DNA of 64,000 bases. It comes from Candidatus Dadabacteria bacterium. Its GTDB lineage: Bacteria; Desulfobacterota_D; UBA1144; Nemesobacterales; Nemesobacteraceae. This document shows, one piece after another, positions 9,331-35,209 of this stretch (positions are counted from its first letter, which is position 1; each line of letters begins with the position of its first letter). The notes beneath the pieces were generated by a model that saw only the letters and a list, made by a program, of their open reading frames with translations, did no database searches and had not been told where the DNA came from. The translations under genes and the position numbers were made by a program. Location: contig JAPOYE010000016.1 of assembly GCA_026706695.1 (NCBI GenBank), forward strand, positions 6,191 to 70,190, given 5' to 3'.

Positions 9331-9373
9331 AACCTGTTTAACCTTAAAGAAACTGAATTTTTTCGTATTGGGC

Positions 9374-10327
9374 CTAGTAAACCGTGTAGCGGTTGCTCTT
9401 TCTTTTACCCTGTCTCGTAAAATTAACGGTAAACTCACTCTGGCCCCTCAAGTCGGTAAAAAGCGAAAGAGCGCTCTGCACGTCGTTTAAAGCAACTTCA
9501 TTTATCTGGTGAACTATATCCCCGTTTCTAAGACCCATTTTATAAAACACGCTCCGGCTTTTCACTCCGAAGATCTTGATGCCGTCATCGCGCGGCACAA
9601 TCTTAGCCTCGGTTATTAAACTGCTGGGTTCAGCGAGCAGCTCTTCAAACATCACTCTCTCTATCTGGTACAAGCCCTCGCTGACCTTGCTGACCCCTGA
9701 AGCCGACGACTTTTTTGACCTAACAGACGGTCTGTTCCTTGCTTGAGAACTCGCGGGGCTTTTCGCGAAAACGGATTCAAGCTCGTTTCCGCAGGTAATC
9801 AATTCGGGACCTTCCGCTCTTCGTATAGTCACTTCGCAGTCGTCTATTTTCACTACCTCCACTTTTTCGGATGTCACAAGATCAACCAACTGCCCTTCAG
9901 AATAACCCTTTATTCCGCTATTTTCCATATTCTTTATCACGGCGATGCTCTTGTTGGCTGCAGAATCAGCGCGGCTTTTGAGTATGAAAGTTCCAAGAAG
10001 TTCAAGCTTGAGGGAAGTTTTCGGGGTAATTTCCCCCTCGAAAACTTCCGAGGAATTGCCCGTTCCCATCTGCCCGGCATACCCGCCCGTTCCGAACAGA
10101 TTTGTTCTCAGTATAGAGTCGTAGTGCTCCCTTGAACGATAGGGAATCTTAACCCGTCCGTACTTCTCCTTGTAGATGTGTTCTCCTGTCAGGCCTCCCT
10201 TGTCGGACTCTATCTTGTCGCGCAGGCCGTTGTTGATCGTGGCCGAAACCGAGTACGCAATGGCGACTATCAGCAAGACGTTTACGACCCAGACATACTT
10301 TCTCAAGACAAACAAAACCATAGTCAA
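9374..10327 (-). CDS. gspC: Type II secretion protein GspC-like (N-terminal TM anchor, C-terminal PDZ)
   Basis: N-terminal membrane anchor and a C-terminal PDZ-like segment (GLRNGDIVHQINEVALNDVQSAL). It is the first gene of the gsp operon. Confidence 0.6.
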   Translation of the reverse strand: MTMVLFVLRKYVWVVNVLLIVAIAYSVSATINNGLRDKIESDKGGLTGEHIYKEKYGRVKIPYRSREHYDSILRTNLFGTGGYAGQMGTGNSSEVFEGEITPKTSLKLELLGTFILKSRADSAANKSIAVIKNMENSGIKGYSEGQLVDLVTSEKVEVVKIDDCEVTIRRAEGPELITCGNELESVFAKSPASSQARNRPSVRSKKSSASGVSKVSEGLYQIERVMFEELLAEPSSLITEAKIVPRDDGIKIFGVKSRSVFYKMGLRNGDIVHQINEVALNDVQSALSLFTDLRGQSEFTVNFTRQGKRKSNRYTVY

Positions 10328-19023: not shown

Positions 19024-21285
19024 TCACATATACCGATAGGTCAGCTGCACGCCGAAGGTCCTGCCCCTGAAAAGCGACGTGAATGAACCTCCCAATTGTT
19101 GAAAGAGAGGATTGTCAAGCGCTTGATAGCTTCCGTGCTTGACCTCGTTAAGAAGGTTCTTTCCATAGAATCCGACTGAAAATCTGTCGCTCATCGGGGT
19201 GATGTCAATTCCGGCGTCAACAATGTTCTGCTCGGGAGTATATCCCATATTGTTATCCGTGAGATATGTTTTGCCACGATATGAATAGCTTATCCTTGAA
19301 GTCATCTTCCCCCAGTCCGCAAGTCCGGCGTCATGGGTAGCGCCGACGCTCCAAGTCAGCTTCGCGGCCCGGGGAAGCTCTAAAGCCAGGTCTTTTTCGT
19401 CAAGAACGCGATCCACATTAAGGTCATATTTTATTTTGGTGTACTCGGGATCCACGTATCCGACTGAACCCAGAAGAAAAAGCCTGTCGGTAACCGCAAC
19501 CAGCCCGTCAAGTTCAAAGCCGAAGGCTTCCACGTCAGCAGTGTTGCGAATCTCCTGTGCGAAAACGCTGGCCGATCTGGGAAGAGTTATTATCCGCTGC
19601 ACATCATCGATCATGTTATAGAAAACCGCGCCGTTGAGAATACCTATGTTTGTCGATATCTTGAATCCCGCCTCGAAGGTATCGATTTTCTCCTCATCGT
19701 ACGGCCCCGGGAGCTCCTGATCTGGGGGGTAACTGTTTCGCAGATTATAGCCTCCTGAACGGAATGCTCTGGTCCAGTGTCCGTAGACACTCGCTTCAAC
19801 TTCCGGTCCGCCACCTATATAGTAGACAGCGCCGAGCTTGGGCGACCAGCTGTTCCAAGTTTCCTCGTCGGTGAAATCAAACTCGCATGCCGGTCCGACC
19901 GCAACGTTGCATGGCACCGGGGTAGCGGAAACGGTCTCCGCCTTTCTCTTTTCATGGCTGTAACGGGTGCCCGAGATAAGCGTTACCCGGTCCGTAAGAT
20001 CGTAATCAAGCGAGAGAAACACGCCCAAAGTATCGACAAAATAATTTCCTCCCAGATTCTGGGTTACAGCTCCTCCCAGTATATAACGGCTGTCATGGTA
20101 GTTTATCTCGTTTGTAAAGTAGTAAAGACCGGTCGTCGCGTGGAGACTTTCAAAGAATCTGCCCGCATAGCGCAGTTCGTTGCTCCACTGGCGGTATGGG
20201 GTCCATCCGCGTATGTGGAGAATGTTTTTCGGGGTAGAGTCGATATCAACCTGAGCGCTACCTTCCGAATCGAAAAAACCGAATATATTGGTCACGGTGC
20301 CGTCTCCGAAATCCACATCCCAGTCAAGCTGAGCGGTGAAGAAGTGATGTTCATGCCTCCTGAAGCCTTCTTCGTCAATGCTGAAATCATGACTGTTAAG
20401 ATCGAAGTCACGCTGGTTCTGCGACGCGGTGCCGTCGTTCCTCGTTTTTTCGTACTGGTAGCGCAGAACAAGGCTCACGTCATCCGTCGGGCTCCACGCA
20501 ATCATCGGTCGTACCATCCGTATGTCGTTCTCTCCGAAAGCCTCGCCCGTGTGGAGGTTCTTGAACCAGCCGTTATCCTGATTCGTGTACGCGCTTACCT
20601 TCACTCTTAATGTCTCGCTGATCGGGCCTCCGACTGTGGTCATGTAATAGCTGTTAAGGCTCTCGCCCCCTCCTTCAAACGAAGCGCGGGCCGATACCTC
20701 AAAAACGTCTCCCGGTTTCTTAGTGTTAATCAGTACGGCTCCCCCCGTGACATTCCGCCCGAAAAGCGTTCCCTGCGGTCCCCTCAGCACCTCTATGCTT
20801 TCAACATCGAAGGTGTCAAACAAAACAATGCTTATCTGCCCCATATACACGCCGTCGACAAACACTCCCACGGTCGGATCAATAGACGCTATGGTGTCGT
20901 TTATTCCCACGCCGCGGATGGAAAAGTTGGCTAGCGACATTCCCGAGATGCCATCGTCAAGGGCCACGTTGGGCATGAGCACCGCGAGACTTTCAAGGTC
21001 GTTTACCTTAAGGGTTTCAATCTGTTCCGAACTGAAATGGGTAATCGACAGGGGGACGTTCTGAATCAGTTCCTCCCGTTTTCGGGCGGTGACCGTGATT
21101 TTTTTGAGAAGTACGCCGCTTACCCCGAACACACTCTGCGCGGCAGTGTCATCGCCCTGTGCGGATGCGTCGCCGCCACCGAGCGACGCCAGGAACAAGC
21201 ATGCGAGAGACATGCATAAAAGCCTCTTCACTGCAGACTGGAATTTTCTTTTAATCATTTCGATGCCCTCCTTTCTGTCAAGCAA
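19024..21285 (-). CDS. TonB-dependent outer-membrane receptor
   Basis: Signal peptide, N-terminal plug region (VTARKREELIQNVPLSITHFS), ~750 aa beta-barrel length. Confidence 0.85.
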   Translation of the reverse strand: MLDRKEGIEMIKRKFQSAVKRLLCMSLACLFLASLGGGDASAQGDDTAAQSVFGVSGVLLKKITVTARKREELIQNVPLSITHFSSEQIETLKVNDLESLAVLMPNVALDDGISGMSLANFSIRGVGINDTIASIDPTVGVFVDGVYMGQISIVLFDTFDVESIEVLRGPQGTLFGRNVTGGAVLINTKKPGDVFEVSARASFEGGGESLNSYYMTTVGGPISETLRVKVSAYTNQDNGWFKNLHTGEAFGENDIRMVRPMIAWSPTDDVSLVLRYQYEKTRNDGTASQNQRDFDLNSHDFSIDEEGFRRHEHHFFTAQLDWDVDFGDGTVTNIFGFFDSEGSAQVDIDSTPKNILHIRGWTPYRQWSNELRYAGRFFESLHATTGLYYFTNEINYHDSRYILGGAVTQNLGGNYFVDTLGVFLSLDYDLTDRVTLISGTRYSHEKRKAETVSATPVPCNVAVGPACEFDFTDEETWNSWSPKLGAVYYIGGGPEVEASVYGHWTRAFRSGGYNLRNSYPPDQELPGPYDEEKIDTFEAGFKISTNIGILNGAVFYNMIDDVQRIITLPRSASVFAQEIRNTADVEAFGFELDGLVAVTDRLFLLGSVGYVDPEYTKIKYDLNVDRVLDEKDLALELPRAAKLTWSVGATHDAGLADWGKMTSRISYSYRGKTYLTDNNMGYTPEQNIVDAGIDITPMSDRFSVGFYGKNLLNEVKHGSYQALDNPLFQQLGGSFTSLFRGRTFGVQLTYRYM

Positions 21286-21404: not shown

Positions 21405-24008
21405 TTAACTTCGGCCTTTTAAGAGACCTTTCCAGAATACTGCCGAAAACAGTACGGAGGCTATGAAAAACAGGCTAAACAAAGTACCTTTGGCAGTACC
21501 ACGAGCCCCGGCAATCGCACACCCGTCGTCACCGCTAACTCCCGGATGAAGACCGGAACCTATTATAAGTTCCTCGCCTCCCAGAAAGTCGGGATGACTA
21601 TAGGTTACAACATAGCTTAACTTGGGTACATCACCAGGGGCTCTGCCTTCTTCGGTCCTTGGGGGTATATCATCCGTCGGATCATCCCACAGGTATTCGA
21701 CAAACCCCCCGGAGTCCTCCGGCAGCAGGCCCAGTTCCTTACATTGCCTGTCCTGGCCATTTGCCACCCTGATTGCCTCATTGCCAACATCGCACTCATT
21801 ATCGTCCCTGACATCAAAACTTCGGTTCTCAAGATGAGGCCCATTCCCGTTAAAGAACACCAGATTCCCCTCGGTCATGATAAACACGTAGATACCCTTG
21901 TGCCTCCAGGGCGATATCCTCCAGCAATTGCGGATCCTGGCTAACTGGGCGGGACTTTGACTGTTTTCTTCCACCTGCTCGGCAAAGTGGTCCCTGAAAT
22001 TCTCCACAAACTCTTTAAGCGTGTCGCTGTCTGCAACCTCATTAGCAGTTCTTCCCTGAGTGATAAAGGGTTTTTCATCAATTGGCTTTGTGAAGAATGG
22101 ACAATTTATCTCATCAAAGCTCACTTCACTATCATCATCCCCTTCATGATCATGATGATAGCCGGCGATAAGGATAAGCTTGGTCTTCCAGATTGGGTGT
22201 TCGAACTTGACGGCACATGCTATCCTTTCCGTACCGCGCTCACCCTCTTCATGCTCATCGCCTTCTTCCGGGCCGTACGGAACACAGCCGCCTGCTTCCA
22301 TTCCTGAAGCTTCAATGAGGCTGGTTACTTCCGGGTGAAGGCCGCCCGTTCGTGCCTCGCCTTCGCCTGAATAATGAACCAGTGTCCCGTTCTGTGCTTC
22401 AGGGTCATCTGCATGAATAAAGATTGTGCCTTCTTCATCTATCACCATCAGATATATGGTGCCGTTCTTCCAGTCCCCTTCCTCTGTTATGCTCTTCTCG
22501 AATTCTATGTTGTCGTTCGGTTCACTGATGGCCTCCCAGTGAGCTTTTGCATGCAGGATGAAATTCTTCATTCCAGGTTCGTCTGCTTCGGTAATGTCAC
22601 CAGCGGTTAAACCGGTTATGTTGCCATGGTCACCATTTCCATGAGCAACTGCGGGCTGTGGAGCGGATAAGAAAACCACCAGCGTTAAAGCAAAGACAAA
22701 CAAGATTGTCACCCTTTTTCTCATGATTGATCCTTTTTTTGTCCGTTTTCCCGGCGGCCGGTTTTTCCACAAAACCGCTGAAAACAGCAAGGAAACTATC
22801 ATCAAGAAGTTGAATACGGTGCCGCGAGACGTATTCCCAGCGCCCGCAATCGCACATCCCCCGTCATCATCTTCAAGGTAAATACCGGAACCGAAGATTA
22901 AATGAATTGTATTTGTCGCAGTAAGCTGCAAAGGCACTTTCTGAACATAGCTCCTCTTGAGTGAAGTGCCGGGAGCACAGGTCTGAGGGCCATCCGGGCA
23001 GTTCTCCAGATCGACATCGTCATCAGGTGTCGTCGGATCATCCCACAGATACTCAACAAAGCCATCGCTATCGGGGTCGTTCACCTCTTCAACAATCAGG
23101 TCTCCCACGTTTACCCCGTTCTCATCCGTGACATTAAGAGTTTTATTTTCAAGTTCCGGGGTATTTCCGTTAAAGCCTACAATTCGATTTTCGGGCATAA
23201 AGAACATATAGATGGAGCCATGTTTCCACGGCAATGCCCTCCAGCAATGTCGGAGTCCGATCACGCGGGCACCGCCAAGTCGCTTTCTCTGCTCTATATA
23301 ATAATCAATAAACTCTTGTACAAACTGCTTCAGAGTCTCTTCGTCCACCACTTCAGCAGCGGTTATCCGGGGAACATAGTAGGGGCATGTCGCCTTGGCA
23401 AAAGATACATCTTCAAAATCGTGATGAAGTCCACCGATCAGGATCTCTGTAAGCTTAAGAGTTTCTTCACGGAAAACCGGATGGAGAAATTCGACAGCAC
23501 AGCTAACCCTTTGACTTCCGTTCAAGACATAGTTCAGACAGCCCCCATCCTCGTTTTCGCCTGCAAGCCTGATGAGTCGTTCCACAACCCGTGTTCCCTC
23601 GTCGTCCTCGAAATCATACAAAGACCCGTTTTCCGCGAGAGGATGGTATGGCTGATGAATCAGCGTACCATCTTTCCGTAACCGGATTACATATGTGGCG
23701 TCGCTTCTCCAATCTCCCCCATCTATCGATGCCCGGTTTTTGAATTCAACAAACGCAGCTATACTTCCCGTGGGAACTTCGTCCAAGTGTGCTTTTATAT
23801 GCAGCACAAAGTCCTTCACGCTGCCTTCATTCGCAGGGTCAACGTCACCGGCGGTTACGCCCATTGTATCGCCGTGGTCACCGTCCCCATGGGCGGTTGC
23901 GGGTTGGGTTGCGGAGAAGAAAAACAGCAAAGCCAGCACACACGCAAGAAGCGCCGCTCCGCTTTCCAGTTTCCTCGCAAAATCTTTCTTCGTCAAGATC
24001 TTCATCAC
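21405..24008 (-). CDS. Exported His/Asp-rich protein: two tandem paralogous units fused in frame
   Basis: Residues ~1-433 and ~438-867 are paralogous. Each has a signal peptide ending A-x-A before HG[D/N]GDHG. Both share FxLHxKAH, CAV[E/K]FxHP, HHD, FVEYLWDDPT and a C-terminal GCAIAGA + hydrophobic helix + basic tail. No stop codon lies between the units. Confidence 0.6.
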   Translation of the reverse strand: MMKILTKKDFARKLESGAALLACVLALLFFFSATQPATAHGDGDHGDTMGVTAGDVDPANEGSVKDFVLHIKAHLDEVPTGSIAAFVEFKNRASIDGGDWRSDATYVIRLRKDGTLIHQPYHPLAENGSLYDFEDDEGTRVVERLIRLAGENEDGGCLNYVLNGSQRVSCAVEFLHPVFREETLKLTEILIGGLHHDFEDVSFAKATCPYYVPRITAAEVVDEETLKQFVQEFIDYYIEQRKRLGGARVIGLRHCWRALPWKHGSIYMFFMPENRIVGFNGNTPELENKTLNVTDENGVNVGDLIVEEVNDPDSDGFVEYLWDDPTTPDDDVDLENCPDGPQTCAPGTSLKRSYVQKVPLQLTATNTIHLIFGSGIYLEDDDGGCAIAGAGNTSRGTVFNFLMIVSLLFSAVLWKNRPPGKRTKKGSIMRKRVTILFVFALTLVVFLSAPQPAVAHGNGDHGNITGLTAGDITEADEPGMKNFILHAKAHWEAISEPNDNIEFEKSITEEGDWKNGTIYLMVIDEEGTIFIHADDPEAQNGTLVHYSGEGEARTGGLHPEVTSLIEASGMEAGGCVPYGPEEGDEHEEGERGTERIACAVKFEHPIWKTKLILIAGYHHDHEGDDDSEVSFDEINCPFFTKPIDEKPFITQGRTANEVADSDTLKEFVENFRDHFAEQVEENSQSPAQLARIRNCWRISPWRHKGIYVFIMTEGNLVFFNGNGPHLENRSFDVRDDNECDVGNEAIRVANGQDRQCKELGLLPEDSGGFVEYLWDDPTDDIPPRTEEGRAPGDVPKLSYVVTYSHPDFLGGEELIIGSGLHPGVSGDDGCAIAGARGTAKGTLFSLFFIASVLFSAVFWKGLLKGRS

Positions 24009-26337: not shown

Positions 26338-27645
26338 TTATTCCTTGTCAATCTGCGCCGCTTCGCCCTCTACTTCCTCAATCCGGGCCTGCTCCAGTAG
26401 AAGATCCAAGACTCCTCGGGTTTTGATCTGGGATTCCAGATGCTCCATAGTCCCCGGCTGCTCATAAGCCTTGTGTACCTGATCCGGGGGAAGATTGTAT
26501 GAAGCGGCGAGGCGGTCTATGTGGTCGTTTAGCTGTTTGCGGGTAACTCTCACGTTCTCCTTCTGAGCGATGCGACCGAGAATTATGGATGTCCTGACGC
26601 TCTCTGCGGCCTTCTCGGTGAATTTCGGCGCCACGTCCTCCCCGATCTCCGGCTCCGCGACTCCGCCTCTCTGCATGTCGGAGAGAAATCTCGCTTTAAG
26701 GCTCTCCTCCTCCTTTTCAAGCAGCGACGGAGGAATGTCGAACTGGTTTTTCGAGAGAAGGTCGTCGACTATCTGTTCCCTCATGGATGAGAGCTGTTCG
26801 TCTTCATGAAGGTGCTCAAGCTGCTCCTTTATGAGCTCTCGCAGTTCAGAGATGCCCTCAACGTCAAAATCCTTAGCGAAACCATCATCCGCCTCGGGCA
26901 GAATCCTGTCGTGAATCTCATTTATCTTGACGGTGAAACTGACGGTTTTCCCGGCGGCCTCGGGTATCAGGAAGTCTTCCGGGTAGGAAACCGAAAATTC
27001 CGTCTCCTCGCCCGCTTTTTTCCCAAGCAGGTTCTCTTCGAACTCGGGGGCAGCCTGCTCTTCACCCAGAAGGAACCTTACGTTCTGCCTGTTAAGATCG
27101 TCTATGGTCTCCCCGTCCTCAAACGCACCGCTGTAGTCTACAAAAACATAATCGCCTTCCTTTGCGGGACGGTCCTCCTCGACAAGCCTTGACTGTACGG
27201 ACCTTTCCCTGAGTTTCTGCACCTCGGCGTCTATATCCTCCTTGGTCACCCGGCGGACGGTTTTCTTAACTGGAATTGAGGTGTAGTCGGAAAGTTCAAA
27301 ATCGGGAATCACCTCGAATTCAGCTGAATAAGCAAACTCCTCTCCGGTCTTTACCTCACCCATCTCCGTAATGTCGGGGCGCGTCACCGGCAGAAGCGAG
27401 CGTTGCGCAAGGGCTTCGGACAAGGTTTCCGAAACAAGGTTAGATGCGGTTTCCTGATCAACTTCCTTTCCATACATTGACTCGACCACGTGACGGGGGA
27501 CCTTCCCCTTCCTAAACCCCTTGACGCTCACTCCTCCCATAACGTCGCGGAACACGGAATTTCTTTTTTCTGCGACCTGTTCTGGAGAGAGGGAAACCCT
27601 TATCTTTTTTCTGGTGCTGTCAATGTCCTCAATATTTATTTTCAT
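26338..27645 (-). CDS. tig: Trigger factor
   Basis: 435 aa located upstream of clpP-clpX, with the GFRKGKVP ribosome-binding motif. Confidence 0.9.
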
Positions 27646-27715
27646 TTAGTTTAAAACCTCTCAGTAAATAATTCCCCGAGGAAGCAATGTTCTCTCTGGG
27701 ATGCTGATACATTTG

Positions 27716-27982
27716 TTACTTGCTTTTTGCTTTTAGGGGAAATTTTTCAGGATTCTCTATTATTTCTTCCGTAACGTCAACATCAATATCGGGCCAATAG
27801 AAGTGCCCTGGGGACGGTTCTTCGACATTGATGATCGATTTTATGGACTGATCCCTGAACCAAGGAAAATCATCATAAGACATAAACAACTCTTTTCCGT
27901 GAGCCAGAAGCCATACTCCATGAGTAGAGATATTTGTCACCTCAACTGCCGAAATGCTGCTTCCATGCTGCGATAAGCTCAT
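27716..27982 (-). CDS. DUF2442-family small protein
   Basis: ~88 aa small protein, lower GC, overlapping its DUF4160 partner. Confidence 0.55.
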   Translation of the reverse strand: MSLSQHGSSISAVEVTNISTHGVWLLAHGKELFMSYDDFPWFRDQSIKSIINVEEPSPGHFYWPDIDVDVTEEIIENPEKFPLKAKSK

Positions 27983-28190
27983 CGTAATGAACCTCCACGA
28001 GTAATTCAATCTCCCTGAGTTGGTGTATAGAATAACGATAATTTTTTGCTAACTCAATTTTGGGTTCAAGCCAAAACTTCGCCTCGCCTTCACTTGATAC
28101 TACATGGACGTGCATTCGTTGTTCTTCCCTTGAGAAAAAGAAGAACCGATACCCCTTTTCTCTGAACACCGTAGGACTCATGATCAGCAC
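27942..28190 (-). CDS. DUF4160-family small protein
   Basis: 82 aa. The DUF4160/DUF2442 gene pairing is a recurring arrangement. Confidence 0.55.
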   Translation of the reverse strand: MLIMSPTVFREKGYRFFFFSREEQRMHVHVVSSEGEAKFWLEPKIELAKNYRYSIHQLREIELLVEVHYDELIAAWKQHFGS

Positions 28191-28219
28191 ATATTTATAC
28201 TTGCTGGAGATAGAAACCG

Positions 28220-30181
28220 CTACATGTTTTGAGTGCCGTTCGCAACTTGCGAATGTTTTTCCCGGTATACGTAATTTCGTGCGAACAAAGAAAAGGCAAG
28301 GAGAAGGAGGACAGCTTGGGGGATCGCGGTCTCATAAGAGGGATATATCCCGAGAGTATCCATGTAAGGAATGAAATCCGCCGTAGTTGAAGAAATAATT
28401 CCCGCCTCCTGGAGTTCAAGTATTCCCTTGCCGAGAAGTATGAAACAGAGCAAGTAGAGGAAAACGCTCGTGAAGGAAAAGAAGTATTTAAGAGGAATCC
28501 TGAGGGTAAACCTGTACATAAGAAAGGCTATTACGAACACGACCGCCACTCCTGCAATAAGTCCATAGATCACGTGCGGCGTGGATGAACCGGTCTGGAA
28601 GAAAAGCGCCTGGTAAAAAAGAATCGTCTCGAAAGCCTCCCTGTAGACGGCAAGAAACGAAACGAAAGCAAGAGTAAGACCGCTTCTGCGGGTAAGCGCG
28701 CCCTGGGTCTTCGAGCGGACGTATTCCTTCCATTTTTTTACGTCCGCCTTTGAGACAAGCCAGTAACTTACGTAAAAAAGAATCGCTGCCGCCAGAAGAG
28801 AAGTCACTCCTTCCACGATCTCCCTCCTGGCCCCCGAGATGTCTATTATAGTTCTTGCCGCAACCCACGTCGCCAGTCCCGCAAAGATGGCGAGCACCCA
28901 CCCGTAGTGAACGTACCTGATCATCCCGCGGTTACCTGAATGCGCCAAAGCGGCGATAATGGCCGCAATGATCAGCAGAGCTTCAAGCGCTTCTCTGAGT
29001 ATTATGGCAAAAGAATTAACAAAACTCAGGTATTTGCCGAGCGATGAGCCGCCTTGCAGAATGCGTTCCGACTCACGAAGATCCTCCTCTATGCTAGCTT
29101 TCAGATCATGAAGCTCGGAGGAGTCCCGGTCGGACATCACTAATGACCTGAAAAATCCCATTTTTTTCTCAACCTCAAGAACAAGCGGTCTTTTTTTCGA
29201 TACCAGGGCAGGTTCGATTCTCTGAAACCCTCCCAGGTACCCGTCGAGAGCCTCCTTGAAAGCCTCGTCCTTTCTACCGGCCTCGTAAAGATCGATGGCC
29301 TCTTCAAGCTTCCCCACGGTATGGGCTATAGCTTCGGATGCATCTCCAGCAATTCCATCCCGAAGATAAGCGGTTCTCAGGTAAAAAAGAACTTCCTCGT
29401 CACTGCCCCCGGCTCCGGCATTAAGAAGAATCTCCGCATTGCTGGCCAGGGCAAGATTTTCAAGCTTTCTTACATCATGGGGAATATTCTCCGTGGAGAA
29501 CCCAGAAGTACCTCCGCCTGAGGGAATATCCGGATACCCGAGCGAGAGAACATAAAACGCCACATCCCATTTCTGTTTTTCGTCAAGCACCTTTTCGAAC
29601 GAGGTCATGGCGGTACCTTCGATCCCGAAAGTGGTGGTGTTGTAAACTTTAAAGGGTGAGAGCCCGAGATTTATATCAGGGGCTGTGAAATCCGTGGGAG
29701 GAGGATTGAGGGTCTTAGAGAAAGCATCGTCCGGCCTTCCTGAGAGCCCATGACAGGAGGAACAGTTCCTTACGTAAAGCTCTTTTCCGCTTTCGTAATC
29801 GGGTATATTCGCCGGATAGGGTTTTATGTCATAGGCTGAAATGATCCGCTCTTTCAGTTCACCTGCAAGGCTTTCCACCTCAGAGACGGGCCCTTTGGAT
29901 ACCACAATTGAGTGCAGACGTGCGAATTTTTCGGAAAAATCAGCTGTTCCTTCTCTCTTCTCACCCGTTTTTTCCCACAGGTCAACCGCTACGGAAGAAA
30001 AGTCCAGCATTTCCTGATACTCAAATTCGTTTATGATCTTCCCTTCTTTTACGGCATTTGCGTAATCTCCTCCTATGTAATCGACAAGAGAGAGGACCCT
30101 GTCTATCTCCGCGGCATAAGAGAGCGCGGGAAAAAGAAAAAATATGAGAACTGGCAAATAGAAGAAACTTTTTTTAAGCAT
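28220..30181 (-). CDS. High-affinity iron permease FTR1/EfeU family fused to an N-terminal periplasmic cytochrome c domain
   Basis: Signal peptide, CSSCHG (CXXCH) heme c site, then a polytopic domain carrying two REXXE motifs (REALEAL and REAFETI) typical of FTR1. Confidence 0.8.
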   Translation of the reverse strand: MLKKSFFYLPVLIFFLFPALSYAAEIDRVLSLVDYIGGDYANAVKEGKIINEFEYQEMLDFSSVAVDLWEKTGEKREGTADFSEKFARLHSIVVSKGPVSEVESLAGELKERIISAYDIKPYPANIPDYESGKELYVRNCSSCHGLSGRPDDAFSKTLNPPPTDFTAPDINLGLSPFKVYNTTTFGIEGTAMTSFEKVLDEKQKWDVAFYVLSLGYPDIPSGGGTSGFSTENIPHDVRKLENLALASNAEILLNAGAGGSDEEVLFYLRTAYLRDGIAGDASEAIAHTVGKLEEAIDLYEAGRKDEAFKEALDGYLGGFQRIEPALVSKKRPLVLEVEKKMGFFRSLVMSDRDSSELHDLKASIEEDLRESERILQGGSSLGKYLSFVNSFAIILREALEALLIIAAIIAALAHSGNRGMIRYVHYGWVLAIFAGLATWVAARTIIDISGARREIVEGVTSLLAAAILFYVSYWLVSKADVKKWKEYVRSKTQGALTRRSGLTLAFVSFLAVYREAFETILFYQALFFQTGSSTPHVIYGLIAGVAVVFVIAFLMYRFTLRIPLKYFFSFTSVFLYLLCFILLGKGILELQEAGIISSTTADFIPYMDTLGIYPSYETAIPQAVLLLLAFSLFARNYVYREKHSQVANGTQNM

Positions 30182-30356
30182 AGTCCGCGGACATCTCCCC
30201 ATCTTGGGGGTCAGGGAAGGTACTTTTTACCATTCTAGACCTTTATTGTCAATAATTCTCATCGTTGTCATTTTCGCCTCTCTAAATGGTTCCGGGAAGA
30301 AAATCAGACGGGTAATTTCGCTGATTTTCTTGTCCGCAAATATTTTTAAAAAATTC

Positions 30357-30385
30357 TTGACATCATAACTCCAGAATGTTATTAA
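30357..30385 (+). promoter_or_regulatory. Sigma70-like promoter, TTGACA-17 nt-TATTAA, upstream of the porin gene
   Basis: Consensus -35 hexamer at 30357-30362, 17-nt spacer, TATTAA at 30380-30385. The RBS AAGGTGGA precedes the ATG at 30460. Confidence 0.5.
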
Positions 30386-30459
30386 TTTACATCATGGATA
30401 TCAAATATCCAGAATATCTATTAATTACGCACCCTAACAAGGTCACAAAAAGGTGGAAA

Positions 30460-31749
30460 ATGCTTTTTGTCTTTTTCCTGATTTTTTCACTCGGAGGCAC
30501 GCAGATTTCTCTAGCGGGTACGGCTTCGGACGAAAAGATAAAAAAGCTTGAGGAGCAGATAAAGGTTCTAGCGGATGAGATAGAAGCCATAAAGTCCGCT
30601 TCGGTAACGGAGCCTACGGTTTATGAGACGGAATTCGGCTTGGCCCCCGCGGCTTCTAAGGTCTACAGGGTTGATCAGGGAATATCGTTCGGAGGATACG
30701 GTGAGGTGCTTATAGGCAACGTAAAAGAGGGGGATGCGAACGATGTAGTGGATACCCTGAGACTGGTTCTCTATAACGGCTACAAGTACAACGACCACAT
30801 AATTTTCAACTCGGAAATAGAATTCGAACACGGTACGACGGGAAGCAACAAGGATGGAAAAGCGGGATCGGCCTCGGTTGAGTTCGCGTACGTCGATTTC
30901 CTTATAAGGGATGAGCTCAACCTTCGGGGTGGGCTTCTGCTGACTCCTTTCGGAGTTGTAAACGAGATTCATGAACCGACAACGTTTTACGGAGTGGGGC
31001 GACCCGAGGTGGAGAGACGGATAATTCCGAGCACCTGGAGAGAGTCTGGTGCCGGGGCGCACGGAACGTTTGATCTGGGCAGCGGCGGAGAGCTTTCTTA
31101 CAGGGCCTACGTGATGTCGAGCGCCGATGCTCGGGGGTTCAAGGCGTCGGATAACAGAAGTCTTCGAATCAAGGGAAACAGGGCAAGATTCGAGGACATG
31201 GCTTTTGTCGGAAGGCTTGAGTACGATCCTATTCCGGGAATCAGAATCGGAGGATCCATGTACTACGGTAACACCGGTCAGGGCGAGGAAGTTAACGGCC
31301 AGACTATAGACGGCCTCTTCCAGATGTACTCGGTTGACGGACAGTTTCAGTATGCAGGGTTAGACCTGAGGGCTCTAGCAGTCTGGACCAGTCTTGATGA
31401 CGCCGCGCTTATAAACCAACTTAAAGAGTATGAAGGCAACAAATCCGTCGGGGAGGAACAGTCCGGCTGGTATGTTCTAGGAGCATATAACATTTTCTCC
31501 GCGCTTAACTCCGGAAGCAAATACATGGAGTACCTAGCGCCTTTTTTCCGATATGAACAATTTGATACCCAGGAGAAAGTTCCCGCCGGATATGGGAGAG
31601 ACCCAGCGAACGACAGAACCCAGTACACTATCGGGATAAATTACAAGCCGATTCCAAACGTGGTCGTAAAGGCAGAGTATCAGAATCTTGATACCGCCGC
31701 GGGTCAGGCAAAGGACCAGTACAACTTCGGGATTGGATATGTGTTTTAG
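30460..31749 (+). CDS. Outer-membrane beta-barrel porin (OprO/P-like) with N-terminal coiled coil
   Basis: Signal peptide MLFVFFLIFSLGGTQISLAG, a coiled-coil heptad segment, alternating amphipathic beta-strand patterns, and a terminal ...GYVF. Confidence 0.6.
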   Translation: MLFVFFLIFSLGGTQISLAGTASDEKIKKLEEQIKVLADEIEAIKSASVTEPTVYETEFGLAPAASKVYRVDQGISFGGYGEVLIGNVKEGDANDVVDTLRLVLYNGYKYNDHIIFNSEIEFEHGTTGSNKDGKAGSASVEFAYVDFLIRDELNLRGGLLLTPFGVVNEIHEPTTFYGVGRPEVERRIIPSTWRESGAGAHGTFDLGSGGELSYRAYVMSSADARGFKASDNRSLRIKGNRARFEDMAFVGRLEYDPIPGIRIGGSMYYGNTGQGEEVNGQTIDGLFQMYSVDGQFQYAGLDLRALAVWTSLDDAALINQLKEYEGNKSVGEEQSGWYVLGAYNIFSALNSGSKYMEYLAPFFRYEQFDTQEKVPAGYGRDPANDRTQYTIGINYKPIPNVVVKAEYQNLDTAAGQAKDQYNFGIGYVF

Positions 31750-31861
31750 TATGCAGAACTTAAATCCGCGATAAACGGGCGCGGGTTTATGCTTCTTTTT
31801 TTCTCTCTTTCTCTCTCTTAAAAAGGGCAATATTCAGATAGAATGTTGCCCTTCCTTCATC

Positions 31862-32413
31862 ATGAGTATGAGAATCCTTATCTTAATAACGCTTTTGTTT
31901 TTTCTGCATGGTGCCGGAGATGTCTCCGCCAAGGTCTTTCTTACCAAGGGCAAGGCGCTTGAGCTCCTTTTCCCTGAAGCAGAAGAAATAGAAAAAAGAC
32001 ACGTTTTTCTCACCAGACCCCAAGCCGAAAGCGTACGCGAAATGGCCAAGGCAGAGGTAGATTCAAGACTTTATACTTTCTACATAGCGAGATCCGGCGG
32101 AAAAGAGACTGGCTACGCCGTCATCGATACCCACACTCTTCGGACACTTACCGAAACCGTACTGTTCGTGATAAATCCCGATGGGACTCTTCGCCACGCC
32201 GAAACTCTCGCATTTTTCGAACCCACAGATTACATGCCGAGCGGAAAATGGATAAACTTGTTCCTAGAAAAAACCAAGATGGACAGAATGAAGGTAGGAA
32301 AGGGAGTTCCCAACATTACCGGAGCCACTATAAGTGCCGTATCTTTTTCGCAAGCCACGAGAAGGGTTCTCGCAGTCTACAGGGTTATGCTCGGCACCCC
32401 GGCTGATCAATAA
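31862..32413 (+). CDS. FMN-binding domain exported protein (flavinylation target)
   Basis: Signal peptide and a conserved FMN_bind threonine motif (TGATISA), 183 aa. Confidence 0.65.
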   Translation: MSMRILILITLLFFLHGAGDVSAKVFLTKGKALELLFPEAEEIEKRHVFLTRPQAESVREMAKAEVDSRLYTFYIARSGGKETGYAVIDTHTLRTLTETVLFVINPDGTLRHAETLAFFEPTDYMPSGKWINLFLEKTKMDRMKVGKGVPNITGATISAVSFSQATRRVLAVYRVMLGTPADQ

Positions 32414-32433
32414 CTTCTATTCAGGAGAGGAAA

Positions 32434-32931
32434 ATGAAATTCTTCATTTCATCGGACATAAGAAAAAACGACCTGTTAAAACTTGTCGTTCTGCTTACGA
32501 CTATTTTCTTCCTCTTTCTGTGGTTAACCAACCTTCTGCTTTTCCTTAAGGTGGGGTTCAGTTACGGGAGCGTTGTTGAGTACTACAGGGGATCCGAGGA
32601 GAGTTTCAGGCCTCCGAGAAGCTACCTTGGACTGCTTGAAGAAGCCCATTTCCACTTTTTTTCAATGGCTGTTTTACTTGTAACACTCAATCATCTTTTT
32701 CTTTTCACTAACAGAAGCTCCGCCGAAAAGCTTCTCGTCATAATAGCATCTTACGGCTCGGCCTTCCTCGATATAGCCGGCGGCTGGCTGGTAAGGTACG
32801 TAAGCGCCGAGTTTGCCTATGTTAAAATCGGCTCTTTTGTCGTCCTTCAGATATCTCTTCTTTACCTGATCATTTTCGTAACGTTTTATCTTTACAGAAA
32901 AAAACCGGAGTATCCGAAGCCGAAGCAGTGA
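32434..32931 (+). CDS. Small integral membrane protein (4 predicted TM segments)
   Basis: 165 aa with four hydrophobic segments. Translationally coupled after the FMN-binding gene. Confidence 0.5.
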   Translation: MKFFISSDIRKNDLLKLVVLLTTIFFLFLWLTNLLLFLKVGFSYGSVVEYYRGSEESFRPPRSYLGLLEEAHFHFFSMAVLLVTLNHLFLFTNRSSAEKLLVIIASYGSAFLDIAGGWLVRYVSAEFAYVKIGSFVVLQISLLYLIIFVTFYLYRKKPEYPKPKQ

Positions 32932-32943
32932 CTCCCCCGCACC

Positions 32944-33921
32944 TCAGGGACACGCATAAGACCCGAAGCAGGACCTTTTCTCCCCGTTCTTCTCAACGAT
33001 CAAGAAACCCAGTGATTTATCCTTTCTGGCAAACATCTCCGCGCCACGCGGACCCAGAACCGAAACGGCAGTCGAGAAGACATCGGCTTCCGTAGCGGTT
33101 CTGGAGATGGCTACAACCGAAGTCACATCCTCAGCCGGCCAGCCCGTCCTGGGATTTATTATATGGGAGTATCTTTTCCCCTCGTGCTCAAAGTAGCGCT
33201 CGTAATCTCCTGAAGTCGCGACACCCTTGTTCACAAGGTCAAGCTTCGAGATGATTTCGCTTGCCCTCCCGGGTTTTCTCACTCCCACATCCCAGAACTT
33301 TTTGCCTGCAGGGGGGTCCATCGCGTATATGTTTCCCCCGAAATTCACAAGTCCCCTCTTGATCCCGTTTTGCTTGGCGATATTTACCATCTCGTCAACC
33401 GCGTAACCTTTTCCTATAGCTCCGAAGTCGAGTCTGACGCAGTCGCCGTCAAGGAAAACCCGGGATTTAACTTCGTCTATCTTTATTTTCCGAAAACCCG
33501 TACACCCAAGCGCGTCGCGGATCCGTGACCGACCGGGTAACCGCCCCGCCTTGGTCTCAGCCCCCCAGAGTTCGAAAAGACTGCCGATAGTTATGTCAAA
33601 AGCCCCTTCGGTAAGCTCCGAGTACTTAATCGAGGTTCGCACGAGACGCAGAAACTCCGCGGGAACGGAAACGGGAGCGACCCCCGCGGTTCTGTTCACC
33701 TCGGCAAGAACGCTGTCATCCCTGTAGTTACTGAAGAGCCGGTCTATTTCCTTGGTTCTCTCCACGCAGGCATCAACAACCCGGTGGAAAAGTTCCTCGC
33801 TCGGGGAATAAAACTTAAGTTCCACCGTTGAACCCATCGAGTAAAAGGATCTCTCGTAGAGATTCTCCGTACCGTGGGAGCAGGAATAAAAAAGCAGAAC
33901 TAAAAGCGCAAGGTGGCGCAT
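32944..33921 (-). CDS. apbE: FAD:protein FMN transferase ApbE family
   Basis: Signal/lipoprotein N-terminus and ApbE motifs (DFGAIGKGYAVD, SGDYERYFEHEGKRYSHIINPRTG). Confidence 0.8.
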   Translation of the reverse strand: MRHLALLVLLFYSCSHGTENLYERSFYSMGSTVELKFYSPSEELFHRVVDACVERTKEIDRLFSNYRDDSVLAEVNRTAGVAPVSVPAEFLRLVRTSIKYSELTEGAFDITIGSLFELWGAETKAGRLPGRSRIRDALGCTGFRKIKIDEVKSRVFLDGDCVRLDFGAIGKGYAVDEMVNIAKQNGIKRGLVNFGGNIYAMDPPAGKKFWDVGVRKPGRASEIISKLDLVNKGVATSGDYERYFEHEGKRYSHIINPRTGWPAEDVTSVVAISRTATEADVFSTAVSVLGPRGAEMFARKDKSLGFLIVEKNGEKRSCFGSYACP

Positions 33922-33949
33922 GTCTTGAGAATCACGTAAAGCGTTTTTC

Positions 33950-34031
33950 TGCGAGAGGAGGGAGTCGAACCCTCACACCCTAAGGTACTAGATCCTAAAT
34001 CTAGCGCGTCTGCCTGTTCCGCCACTCTCGC
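33950..34031 (-). tRNA. tRNA-Leu (anticodon TAG)
   Basis: Cloverleaf on the reverse complement with anticodon stem CTAGA/TCTAG, loop TTTAGGA, long variable arm, and T-loop GAGGGTTCGACTCCCTC. Confidence 0.8.
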
Positions 34032-34101
34032 CCTTTACAGTCAAAATCGGCAAGCACCCTGAATCGTGCTTCCGGACAGCGCCGTAAGGCGCAAAATGAA
34101 G

Positions 34102-34176
34102 TGGGCTGCGAGGGATTCGAACCCACGACCGACTGATTAAGAGTCAGCTGCTCTACCAGACTGAGCTAGCAGCCCG
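34102..34176 (-). tRNA. tRNA-Lys (anticodon CTT)
   Basis: Reverse complement GGGCTGCTAGCTCAGTCTGGTAGAGCAGCTGACTCTTAATCAGTCGG...GGTTCGAATCCCTCGCAGCCCA, with anticodon loop CTCTTAA. Confidence 0.85.
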
Positions 34177-34252
34177 CAAACAGAATAACAGAAAAGAAAA
34201 TAAATAAAAACCGAAAGCCCGTTCCCCCAAGCAGCCAGAACTTCCCGCCTTT

Positions 34253-35209
34253 TTGAACTCTTCGCTAGGATCGTTTATTTTTGAAGTCGTGGAAAACGTG
34301 ATCAATTACTTCAGGGGATACCACGACGCATATCAAACGCAGATAGAAAACCTCCTGCTGTCGATTCTGATAATTGTTGTCCTGCTATTCCTGAGAAAGG
34401 TTCTCATCTCTCTCATAACCAAGAACACAAAAGATCCCAAGACAGTCTATTACTCAAAACGCATTGTCGGGTACTCCTACGTTTTTCTCGCCATAGTGCT
34501 GGTCGGCAGCGTGTGGATAAGCGGACTGGGTCAGGTAGGAGCCTATCTGGGTATAGCAAGCGCCGGCCTGGCCATAGCGCTTCATGAAACCTTAGCCAAC
34601 ATCGCGGGCTGGTTCTTCATACTCTGGAGAAAGCCCTTCACGATAGGGGACCGCATACAGATAGGAGAAACCAAGGGTGACGTAATAGACCTGAGGCTGT
34701 TTCAGTTCAGCCTGATCGAGATCGGGAACTGGGTTGAAGCGGAGCAGAGTACAGGCAGGGTCATACACGTTCCCAACAGCCACGTGCTCAGAGAAAAAAC
34801 CGCGAATTATCACGGCGGGTTCAACTACATATGGAACGAGATACAGGTTCTCATAACGTTTGAGAGCGACTGGAGAAAAACCCGCGAGATCCTGGAGAGA
34901 ATAGCGAGAGAAGAAAATAAAACTTCTCCGGAACAGGCTGAGGAACAACTCCGCGCGGTCGCCGAAAAGTACATGATACATTTGCCGAACCTCACCCCGA
35001 TGGTTTACATGTCGACAAGGGACAGCGGAGTGCTTTTCTCGATCAGATACACGACAAACCCGAGAAAAAGAAGAGGCTCGGAGCAGGCCATCTGGGCAGC
35101 CATACTCGCCGAGTTCGAAAAGCATCCGGACATAGATCTCGCTTACCCGACAACGCGCTTCTATTCCCTCTCGTCCGGAAGCCCCGACGGAGAAGACCCC
35201 GATTCATAA
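34253..35209 (+). CDS. Small-conductance mechanosensitive channel (MscS family)
   Basis: TM helices followed by the MscS beta-domain motif GDRIQIGETKGDVIDLRLFQFSLIE. Confidence 0.8.
   Translation: MNSSLGSFIFEVVENVINYFRGYHDAYQTQIENLLLSILIIVVLLFLRKVLISLITKNTKDPKTVYYSKRIVGYSYVFLAIVLVGSVWISGLGQVGAYLGIASAGLAIALHETLANIAGWFFILWRKPFTIGDRIQIGETKGDVIDLRLFQFSLIEIGNWVEAEQSTGRVIHVPNSHVLREKTANYHGGFNYIWNEIQVLITFESDWRKTREILERIAREENKTSPEQAEEQLRAVAEKYMIHLPNLTPMVYMSTRDSGVLFSIRYTTNPRKRRGSEQAIWAAILAEFEKHPDIDLAYPTTRFYSLSSGSPDGEDPDS

Follow-up and report, generated by a model that had tools for sequence, protein, structure and literature searches.

A porin, an FMN-binding protein and a four-helix membrane protein accompany a cytochrome c-FTR1 permease in Candidatus Dadabacteria and suggest electron-transfer-dependent iron uptake

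A group of five genes in a marine Candidatus Dadabacteria genome appears to encode a single iron-regulated, envelope-spanning route of iron uptake that depends on electron transfer. We assign this reading, which is based on sequence comparison, a probability of about 0.55. The genes occupy positions 28220–33921 of a 64-kb stretch of contig JAPOYE010000016.1 (hereafter the window, to which all coordinates refer). In some records of the host type, homologues at 83–97% identity carry the label Thermodesulfobacteriota. Gene content, motifs, conserved linkage and the neighbourhoods of iron regulators were observed, and from them we infer the biochemical steps, the direction in which electrons flow and which cofactor is bound by the membrane protein with four transmembrane (TM) helices, termed here the 4-TM protein. 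All five open reading frames (ORFs) described in an earlier note, which had been made from the DNA letters alone, are present. Together with the control region they are:

28220–30202, minus strand: cytochrome c-FTR1 permease of 660 residues, with a signal peptide, helical domain 1, a class I cytochrome c, helical domain 2 and an FTR1 membrane domain.
30203–30459, between the divergent genes: shared control region, with two conserved blocks in a footprint over 23 loci.
30460–31749 (ORF from 30376, 457 residues), plus strand: first gene of the triad, encoding an outer-membrane β-barrel porin whose N-terminal part has a signal peptide and a coiled coil.
31862–32413, plus strand: periplasmic RnfG/NqrC-like protein of 183 residues that binds flavin mononucleotide (FMN), with a Sec signal peptide (...DVSA/KV).
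32434–32931, plus strand: 4-TM inner-membrane protein (PF27139) of 165 residues, with the N and C termini predicted to be cytoplasmic.
32944–33921, minus strand: ApbE, a flavin adenine dinucleotide:protein FMN transferase of 325 residues, convergent with the 4-TM gene across a 12-bp gap.

The invariant unit is the triad porin > RnfG-like FMN-binding protein > 4-TM protein (PF27139, Aq_1264_TM), not the FTR1 gene. Loci were collected by scanning one genome per species with an alignment of the 4-TM protein, and their neighbours were identified by tblastn and ORF clustering, FTR1 and ApbE genes being counted within 10 kb of the triad. The order of the three genes is kept essentially everywhere, in about 79 species-level genomes of Dadabacteria and their relatives, Nitrospirota and Myxococcota, and also on Binatia-type soil contigs. 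Among the 79 loci seeded with the 4-TM protein, 77 contain the porin gene, directly 5′ of the FMN-binding gene, and 72 contain the FMN-binding gene itself, with fused forms in addition; ApbE is nearby in 47. The marine clade, which accounts for 28 of the 79 loci, shows the arrangement of the window almost without variation: the triad is divergent from the cytochrome c-FTR1 gene in 27 loci, ApbE is nearby in 27, and all five genes stand together in 27. Beyond this clade the parts are again found with FTR1, in different phyla and in different gene orders, near Fur, DtxR and ferritin genes. A lack of conservation of the neighbourhood in related genomes, which by the earlier note would have refuted its reading, was not observed.

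A metagenome scan seeded with the cytochrome c-FTR1 protein returned full-length relatives at 35–50% identity. Triads were found in the Binatia-type band (37–42% identity, including Candidatus Binatia), at 5 of the 15 loci that were informative, i.e. had at least 5 kb of downstream flank, and at none in the other identity bands. A co-directional operon, cytochrome c-FTR1 > porin > FMN-binding > ApbE > 4-TM, occurs at L105, L113, L134 and, with less flank, L114; L124 has a variant order, and at L122 a porin-like gene alone was detected, ~9 kb downstream at the contig end. Other FTR1 architectures also accompany the triad. At L067 an FTR1 gene lacking the cytochrome is followed on the same strand by genes for a Fer4_5 polyferredoxin, a helical protein, P19 (E = 2e-62) and a DUF2325 protein and then directly by the triad, and at L073 (Nitrospiria) genes for Fur (4e-35), a cupredoxin (4e-31) and FTR1 (6e-46) directly precede those for the porin, an ApbE::FMN_bind protein and the 4-TM protein. 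Homologues of P19, cupredoxin, polyferredoxin and ferritin were not found in the window by tblastn. The connection with iron is seen in the neighbouring genes as well. Fur-family genes lie shortly 5′ of the porin gene at L066 and L076, and ferritin genes adjoin the triad at the same end at L080 and L081. The Binatia-type cytochrome c-FTR1 loci carry a divergent gene for a DtxR/IdeR-type repressor with a FeoA domain in 24 cases, and genes for an ABC transporter, ferritin and TonB-dependent receptors also occur there.

In total, the accessory genes accompany four FTR1 architectures in at least four independent arrangements. Inherited synteny is thus a poor explanation of the linkage. According to that explanation the triad and FTR1 would share no function, and the triad would serve another periplasmic redox task, concerned with a different metal such as copper or with redox repair. 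Most of the linked cases do fall in one clade of related streamlined genomes, which also share the adjacent tig-clpP-clpX genes, cupredoxin genes accompany the triad in Nitrospirota, and about two thirds of the informative Binatia-type loci, like all those of the other bands, have no triad. Nonetheless we consider mere synteny very unlikely, as the triad is linked to FTR1 in different phyla, in at least four gene orders and with four FTR1 architectures, genes for Fur, DtxR and ferritin are repeatedly found nearby, and a single-copy gene would fall within 10 kb by chance in less than 1% of lineages, a rough estimate rather than a computed statistic.

Two further features of these neighbourhoods were observed. 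At Binatia-type loci (L113 6064–8515, L098 9249–10130 and others) a same-strand ABC transporter with a phosphonate-type binding protein is encoded directly 5′ of cytochrome c-FTR1, and a DUF6662 gene often follows; both are possibly further members of the iron locus. At L001 (3157–7533), in a Dadabacteria relative with 66% identity, the porin gene has the opposite orientation and is separated from the cytochrome c-FTR1 gene by an inserted gene for a UvrD-type helicase, the five genes remaining within ~9 kb.

Domains were assigned with the curated cut-offs of Pfam and NCBIfam, the Pfam scan covering seven genes, the five of the cluster and two neighbours. The FTR1, cytochrome c and ApbE assignments of the earlier note score above the Pfam cut-offs, whereas those of FMN_bind and of the porin fall below them for the window proteins and depend on orthologues and family profiles. 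The FTR1 domain (PF03239) of the permease scores 105.5 bits against a cut-off of 25.3 (E = 4.2e-30). Matches to the EfeU/Ftr1 family TIGR00145 (145.9 bits, E = 1.8e-42) and to the EfeU family NF041756 (119.4 bits) are below the respective curated cut-offs of 303.8 and 255, and the protein is therefore a member of the FTR1/EfeU superfamily but, by the NCBIfam cut-offs, not an EfeU orthologue. Three RExxE motifs, rather than the two previously counted, are present: REALE (residues 403–407, 28982–28996), REIVE (460–464, 28811–28825) and REAFE (521–525, 28628–28642). All are invariant in the family alignment A3, which comprises 12 sequences with a lowest identity of 46%; the coordinates of these and the following motifs were checked by translation.

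The fused redox domain lies between two helical periplasmic domains that span approximately residues 30–125 and 290–385. It matches Cytochrom_C and Cytochrome_CBB3 of Pfam (E = 5e-9; Cytochrom_C 37.7 bits, cut-off 21.3), and its top PDB match is 6h5l_B (E = 1e-15). The haem-attachment motif CSSCH (residues 147–151, 29750–29764) and Met199 within the segment GTAM (29606–29617), the likely axial haem ligand, are both invariant in A3. With a CXXCH motif, a distal methionine and a hydrophobic N-terminal export signal seen in the translation, the domain has the attributes of a class I c-type cytochrome and is predicted to carry a single haem. Orthologues measure 644–651 residues, which suggests that the real start of the protein is Met8 (30181). 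The AlphaFold model of the full-length protein, built from the 12-sequence alignment, is poor, with a predicted local distance difference test score (pLDDT) of 55.6, and its Foldseek matches are meaningless. Non-marine relatives (P0082, P0084, P0089, P0094, P0099, P0104, P0105 and P0115) have an additional cytoplasmic tail of ~80 residues (A3 columns 700–788) that holds a conserved HIKGHIIEWKKC motif and may be regulatory or metal-sensing; it is missing from the window protein and its marine relatives. Between the cytochrome c-FTR1 gene and the trigger factor gene lies a DUF4160/DUF2442 gene pair (27716–28190, minus strand; E = 7e-18 and 6e-11). It looks like a small insertion, since tig directly follows the FTR1 gene at the related locus L001.

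Translation of the porin gene likely starts at the ATG at 30460, which is preceded by a GGTGG ribosome-binding site. The sole Pfam match of the window porin, to BBP2, is below the cut-off (20.9 bits, E = 2.5e-4); a distant orthologue, that of L105 with 24% identity, passes the threshold of Porin_O_P (PF07396; 31.1 bits against 20.9, E = 1.9e-7). A search of PDB sequences with the family profile gave no real match, and neither OprP nor OprO. The protein is best regarded as distantly related to the OprO/OprP-like porins, and the label given to it previously is acceptable in that sense only. The FMN-binding protein also scores under the FMN_bind cut-off of 22 bits (17.1 bits, E = 0.0086). Its family profile A2 matches RnfG (9eri_G) over nearly the full length in a search of the PDB (E = 7.9e-12), orthologues at L074 (3e-10) and L105 (1.9e-7) exceed the FMN_bind cut-off, and NCBI names its orthologues FMN-binding protein. 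The sequence N-I-T-G-A-T-I-S at 32312–32335, conserved in all aligned clades, is the ApbE target motif: N-I-T-G-A-T156 agrees with the flavinylation pattern [D/N]-x-x-[S/T]-G-A-[T/S], and an ApbE gene is nearby. Thr156 (32327–32329) is the predicted site of flavinylation.

ApbE itself matches its Pfam profile over 259 of 266 positions (E = 1e-80) and scores 173 against a cut-off of 498 for the E. coli-type equivalog NF007774. The lipoprotein-like signal at its N-terminus (LLFYSC) indicates that it probably acts in the periplasm. At eight Nitrospirota loci an ORF that joins ApbE (8e-75) to an FMN-binding domain (3e-10) lies between the porin and 4-TM genes. In this ORF of ~510 residues (L074 8340–9896; also L073 and L075–L080) the ApbE part lacks an obvious N-terminal signal, and an internal RRRFL followed by a hydrophobic segment resembles a twin-arginine signal. 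In the window two transfer RNA (tRNA) genes (33950–34031 and 34102–34175, minus strand) lie directly 5′ of apbE on the same strand, and apbE may be transcribed from the tRNA promoter, or by read-through from it, separately from the porin operon.

Of the five gene products the 4-TM protein is conserved best, with 80% identity compared with ~65% for the others. The window protein gave no match in the local Pfam copy, from which the PF27139 model is absent, and was assigned through the precomputed annotation of its homologues: PF27139 (Aq_1264_TM) is recorded on all those listed, including ones that are 92–93% identical. An exhaustive profile search yielded 609 family members. Residues T32, V48, Y51, G53, L68, E69, H72, H74, F76, H87, L88, K99, W118 and L119 are invariant across clades, and D/E113 is nearly so. 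The three invariant histidines (H72, 32647–32649; H74, 32653–32655; H87, 32692–32694) all belong to TM2 and are 13–15 residues apart, a spacing of TM-helix histidines that is the pattern of di-haem membrane cytochromes. The AlphaFold model, with a pLDDT of 81, consists of four TM helices and a short amphipathic helix. Foldseek gave no significant match for it in the PDB; the best two, 3t6g_B (E = 1.6), which is an unrelated helical domain, and 6a2j (haem A synthase; E = 1.7, probability 0.72), were taken as generic matches between helix bundles.

Fused and duplicated relatives are informative on topology and assembly. In P0292, P0293, P0300 and P0297 the 4-TM protein is joined to ApbE through a basic linker and one extra hydrophobic TM helix. 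This arrangement puts ApbE outside and sets both termini of the 4-TM protein in the cytoplasm, so that the periplasmic end of TM2 holds E69, H72 and H74 and its cytoplasmic end H87. About 23 relatives are tandem duplications with eight TM helices (P0289, P0294, P0297 and ~20 others). The first repeat retains H72 in 23 of 23 and E69 in 20 of 23 and never has H74 or H87; the second retains H74 and H87 in all 23, and H72 in merely three. Such a division of the histidines between the repeats speaks for a dimeric working unit whose set of ligands is asymmetric. A further relative, P0355, is joined to a DtxR C-terminal domain and FeoA, in a single case. We favour a His-ligated redox cofactor, for example haem b, in the 4-TM protein, with a metal-ion path as a serious alternative.

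In that alternative the triad would be self-contained. The 4-TM protein would be a small channel for Fe(II) or another metal, with entry at E69, H72 and H74, D/E113 in mid-membrane and exit at H87, and FTR1 would be a parallel or additional importer kept nearby for co-regulation. The invariant Glu, His and Asp residues are indeed typical metal ligands and are spread from one face of the membrane to the other, asymmetric loss of ligands in tandem duplicates is also typical of fused pseudo-dimeric transporters, and in most loci of the middle clade (35 loci at 55–79% identity in the 4-TM protein) the triad occurs without FTR1. Yet a flavoprotein reductase has to obtain its electrons from somewhere, and the cluster has no other conserved membrane redox protein; the 4-TM::ApbE fusion ties the membrane protein to the flavoprotein and not to transport; and FTR1 has not been replaced in at least one middle-clade genome, the metagenome-assembled genome DHS20C13, where the triad and a cytochrome c-FTR1 gene are unlinked on contigs BQJP01000021 and BQJP01000022. 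On balance a channel seems unlikely.

In the electron-transfer-dependent route that we prefer, the dedicated porin would pass small hydrophilic iron species across the outer membrane. ApbE, a putative periplasmic lipoprotein, would attach FMN covalently to Thr156 of the RnfG-like protein, and the dimeric 4-TM protein would be the inner-membrane partner of this flavoprotein, supplying electrons probably via a His-ligated cofactor such as haem b. Fe(III) would be reduced by the flavoprotein and thereby released from its ligands. The FTR1 protein would capture the resulting Fe(II) with its acidic helical domains in the periplasm, and the fused haem c would carry out a permease-proximal redox step, the role of a cupredoxin, P19 or multicopper oxidase elsewhere, with iron entering through the RExxE pathway. 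The scheme as a whole would be a bacterial counterpart of yeast Fre/Fet3/Ftr1. The porin suggests a small hydrophilic substrate and not a siderophore taken up by a TonB-dependent receptor. That the same triad occurs with FTR1 in its cytochrome c, cupredoxin and P19/polyferredoxin forms suggests that it performs a general upstream step, the simplest candidate being reduction of ferric iron once it has passed the porin. Most plausibly, the variable FTR1 partner (haem c, cupredoxin, or P19 plus polyferredoxin) performs the permease-proximal redox step and the constant triad the upstream one.

Covalent FMN of low potential is a natural ferric reductant, as in PplA of Listeria, and electron flow in the ferric-reductase direction is plausible. 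A haem c with His/Met ligation is at least as suited to the oxidation of Fe(II) as to the reduction of Fe(III), and the flow could be the reverse: the haem c would oxidise Fe(II), a role that has been proposed for Fet3 and for the cupredoxin FtrB, and the electrons would drain to the quinone pool through the flavoprotein and the 4-TM protein. FTR1 systems are generally held to couple transport to Fe(II) oxidation, the ligation by CSSCH and the invariant Met199 is typical of high-potential acceptors, and cupredoxins take the place of the cytochrome at Nitrospirota loci. We still judge the reverse direction to be quite improbable. Electrons would have to move uphill to reach the FMN from a high-potential haem c, the covalent FMN of RnfG/NqrC-type domains being of low potential, and an aerobe could send the electrons of cytochrome c to a terminal oxidase without a special module. 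Moreover, the triad also occurs with FTR1 partners that have a proposed electron sink of their own, such as the polyferredoxin of L067.

The porin and permease genes are transcribed divergently from the region 30203–30459, and the phylogenetic footprint of 23 aligned loci shows a conserved block on each side. The FTR1-side block (30228–30256) includes a minus-strand TTGACA −35 hexamer at 30247–30252. On the porin side TTGACA (30357–30362), a 17-nt spacer and TATTAA (30380–30385) are conserved in 23 of 23 loci. This divergent promoter, called near-consensus in the earlier note, agrees with the consensus at only 10 of 12 positions. A simple σ70 scan left it unlisted because its −10 hexamer ends in A, and the promoter call rests on conservation. 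Shortly 3′ of this hexamer, at 30395–30411, is the perfect 7-3-7 palindrome TGGATATcaaATATCCA (pattern TGGATATnnnATATCCA), which is unique in the window. It is found 5′ of the porin gene with 0–1 mismatch in 24 marine loci and with two mismatches at L071, and is likely an operator. Rfam elements in 27600–34400, riboswitches or others, amounted to two tRNAs only. In the middle clade no inverted repeat was common to the upstream regions of the unlinked porin and cytochrome c-FTR1 genes, the alignments being too diverged and the porin-start estimate off; half-sites of GATAT type were noticed there by eye and are not claimed.

Several observations weigh against the proposed route. A canonical Fur box (GATAATGATAATCATTATC, up to three mismatches), which the earlier note had proposed to look for in 30203–30459, is absent there and from the rest of the 64 kb, the conserved palindrome being of a different kind, and the window contains no homologue of Fur or DtxR genes. 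For these reasons iron regulation in the host is deduced from other lineages. In the middle clade only one of 35 loci has FTR1 within 10 kb (34 have none), and ApbE is nearby in 9 of 35. Conversely, the triad is found at 5 of the 27 cytochrome c-FTR1 loci with enough flank, so that most are without it. Fold and profile searches of the PDB detected no similarity of the 4-TM protein to a known cytochrome or transporter, and the location of its histidines on one helix means that haem binding would require a dimer. Finally, a His/Met-ligated haem c is normally of high potential, and most Fe(III) chelates would not be reduced by it alone.

Flavinylated proteins have been associated with FTR1 before. 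A survey by Meheust et al. (2021, eLife; PMC8238504) described 260 P19/FTR1 clusters with an FMN-binding gene, mostly in Gram-positive bacteria, classed them as having no membrane electron-transfer component, and termed the P19/FTR1 system "mechanistically uncharacterized". The survey lists ten membrane systems in addition to P19, DUF2271 and DUF3570 systems and multi-flavinylated proteins, to which Huang et al. (2024, mSystems; PMC11334425) added DUF4405 and FezC. Neither publication mentions a porin, a PF27139-type protein under any searchable name, or cytochrome c-FTR1 (PMC8238504, PMC11334425). Literature searches found no functional study of PF27139 or Aq_1264 and nothing on the function of the cytochrome c-FTR1 fusion or on iron uptake in Dadabacteria, the fusion appearing only as a product name in a table. 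The suggestion that the cluster is not a described Ftr/Efe architecture is therefore half right: the 2021 survey had already reported FMN-binding genes in P19/FTR1 clusters (PMC8238504), but we found the triad described in no searchable paper. Taken together, the parts, their linkage and the connection with iron proposed in the earlier note were borne out, whereas the matter of the Fur box, its exact claim on electron flow and its claim of an undescribed system call for correction. One component family, PF27139, looks new as a functional entity.

The cluster shares with the P19/FTR1 clusters an FTR1 permease, an FMN-binding gene, whose product in the window is predicted to be flavinylated, and apbE, and a proposed redox aid to iron uptake; of the related loci, L067 alone has P19 as well. 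In contrast to them, the window lacks P19 (PF10634), and its FTR1 is fused to a haem c domain and accompanied by a dedicated porin and the 4-TM protein. With FtrABCD of Brucella, Bordetella and Burkholderia and with EfeUOB it has in common an RExxE permease of FTR1/EfeU type with periplasmic redox or metal-binding partners, and regulation by iron, which for the window is predicted from related loci. The counterparts of FtrA (P19), FtrB (cupredoxin) and FtrD (polyferredoxin) are absent from the window, where the partners are instead the fused haem c and the predicted flavinylated RnfG-like protein, and the seven genes scanned with Pfam include no domain of EfeO or EfeB type. The likeness to yeast Fre1/Fet3/Ftr1 is one of proposed logic only, namely a flavin-dependent ferric reductase, a membrane electron conduit, a permease-proximal redox partner and an Ftr1-family permease. 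The permease alone is homologous; the other roles would be filled by unrelated proteins, and an outer-membrane step is added.

The closest parallels to the 4-TM protein are the PepSY-like/FoxB, MsrQ-like, DUF4405 and FezC cytochromes b, which are likewise small membrane proteins encoded beside ApbE/FMN_bind genes, with conserved TM histidines and links to iron. No sequence or fold similarity between them and the 4-TM protein was detected, and the latter has three histidines on one helix as opposed to four on two, although a dimer, which the tandem duplicates support, could supply histidine pairs. FezC, which is linked to both flavinylation and iron, has been shown to bind haem b at sites attributed to homodimerisation by an AlphaFold model (PMC11334425), and the homodimeric haem sites resemble the model proposed here for the 4-TM protein (PMC11334425). 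In the flavin-based extracellular electron transfer of Listeria (Ndh2, EetA/B, PplA and FmnB) an ApbE-type enzyme, as predicted for the window, flavinylates an extracytosolic FMN_bind protein, which is able to pass electrons to ferric iron. The present cluster differs in having no Ndh2, EetA/EetB or DmkA-type genes and in belonging to a Gram-negative envelope with a porin, and its association with an importer points to assimilation, not respiration.

A more far-reaching proposal, which we put forward tentatively, is that the triad represents an undescribed class of flavinylation-based electron-transfer system. Its 4-TM protein would be a transmembrane redox conduit of a new kind, a homodimer in which haem or metal sits between H72 of one subunit and H74′/H87′ of the other, and with the haem-c-fused permease the triad would form a complete reductive-oxidative uptake pathway of Fre-Fet3-Ftr1 type in Gram-negative bacteria. 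If true, bacterial FTR1 systems would thereby gain the electron-transfer partner that they have been missing, in carriers that include abundant marine Dadabacteria. For the redox chemistry of bacterial FTR1-type permeases, the cluster offers a compact set of parts, with a fused redox centre, a predictable modification site, a three-histidine membrane protein and a porin, and it would give PF27139 a first functional context. The carriers include cosmopolitan marine Dadabacteria as well as soil Binatia and Nitrospirota, and the system may matter for the acquisition of iron from seawater that is poor in it.

Elsewhere in the window are two ORFs of 867 residues (6835–9438 and 21405–24008), whose candidacy as paralogues was rejected, the two being unrelated on comparison. 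The ORF at 21405–24008 (minus strand, considered with 19024–21285, minus strand) appears to consist of two tandem paralogous genes in one frame, with a second signal peptide (MRKRVTILF...) in the middle. Each half has the sequence H-G-D/N-G-D-H-G after the signal peptide, a Cache-like domain (dCache_2, 1e-18) and a C-terminal segment made up of DDGGCAIAG, a hydrophobic helix and a basic tail, which is similar to a sorting signal. A TonB-dependent receptor gene adjoins this ORF.

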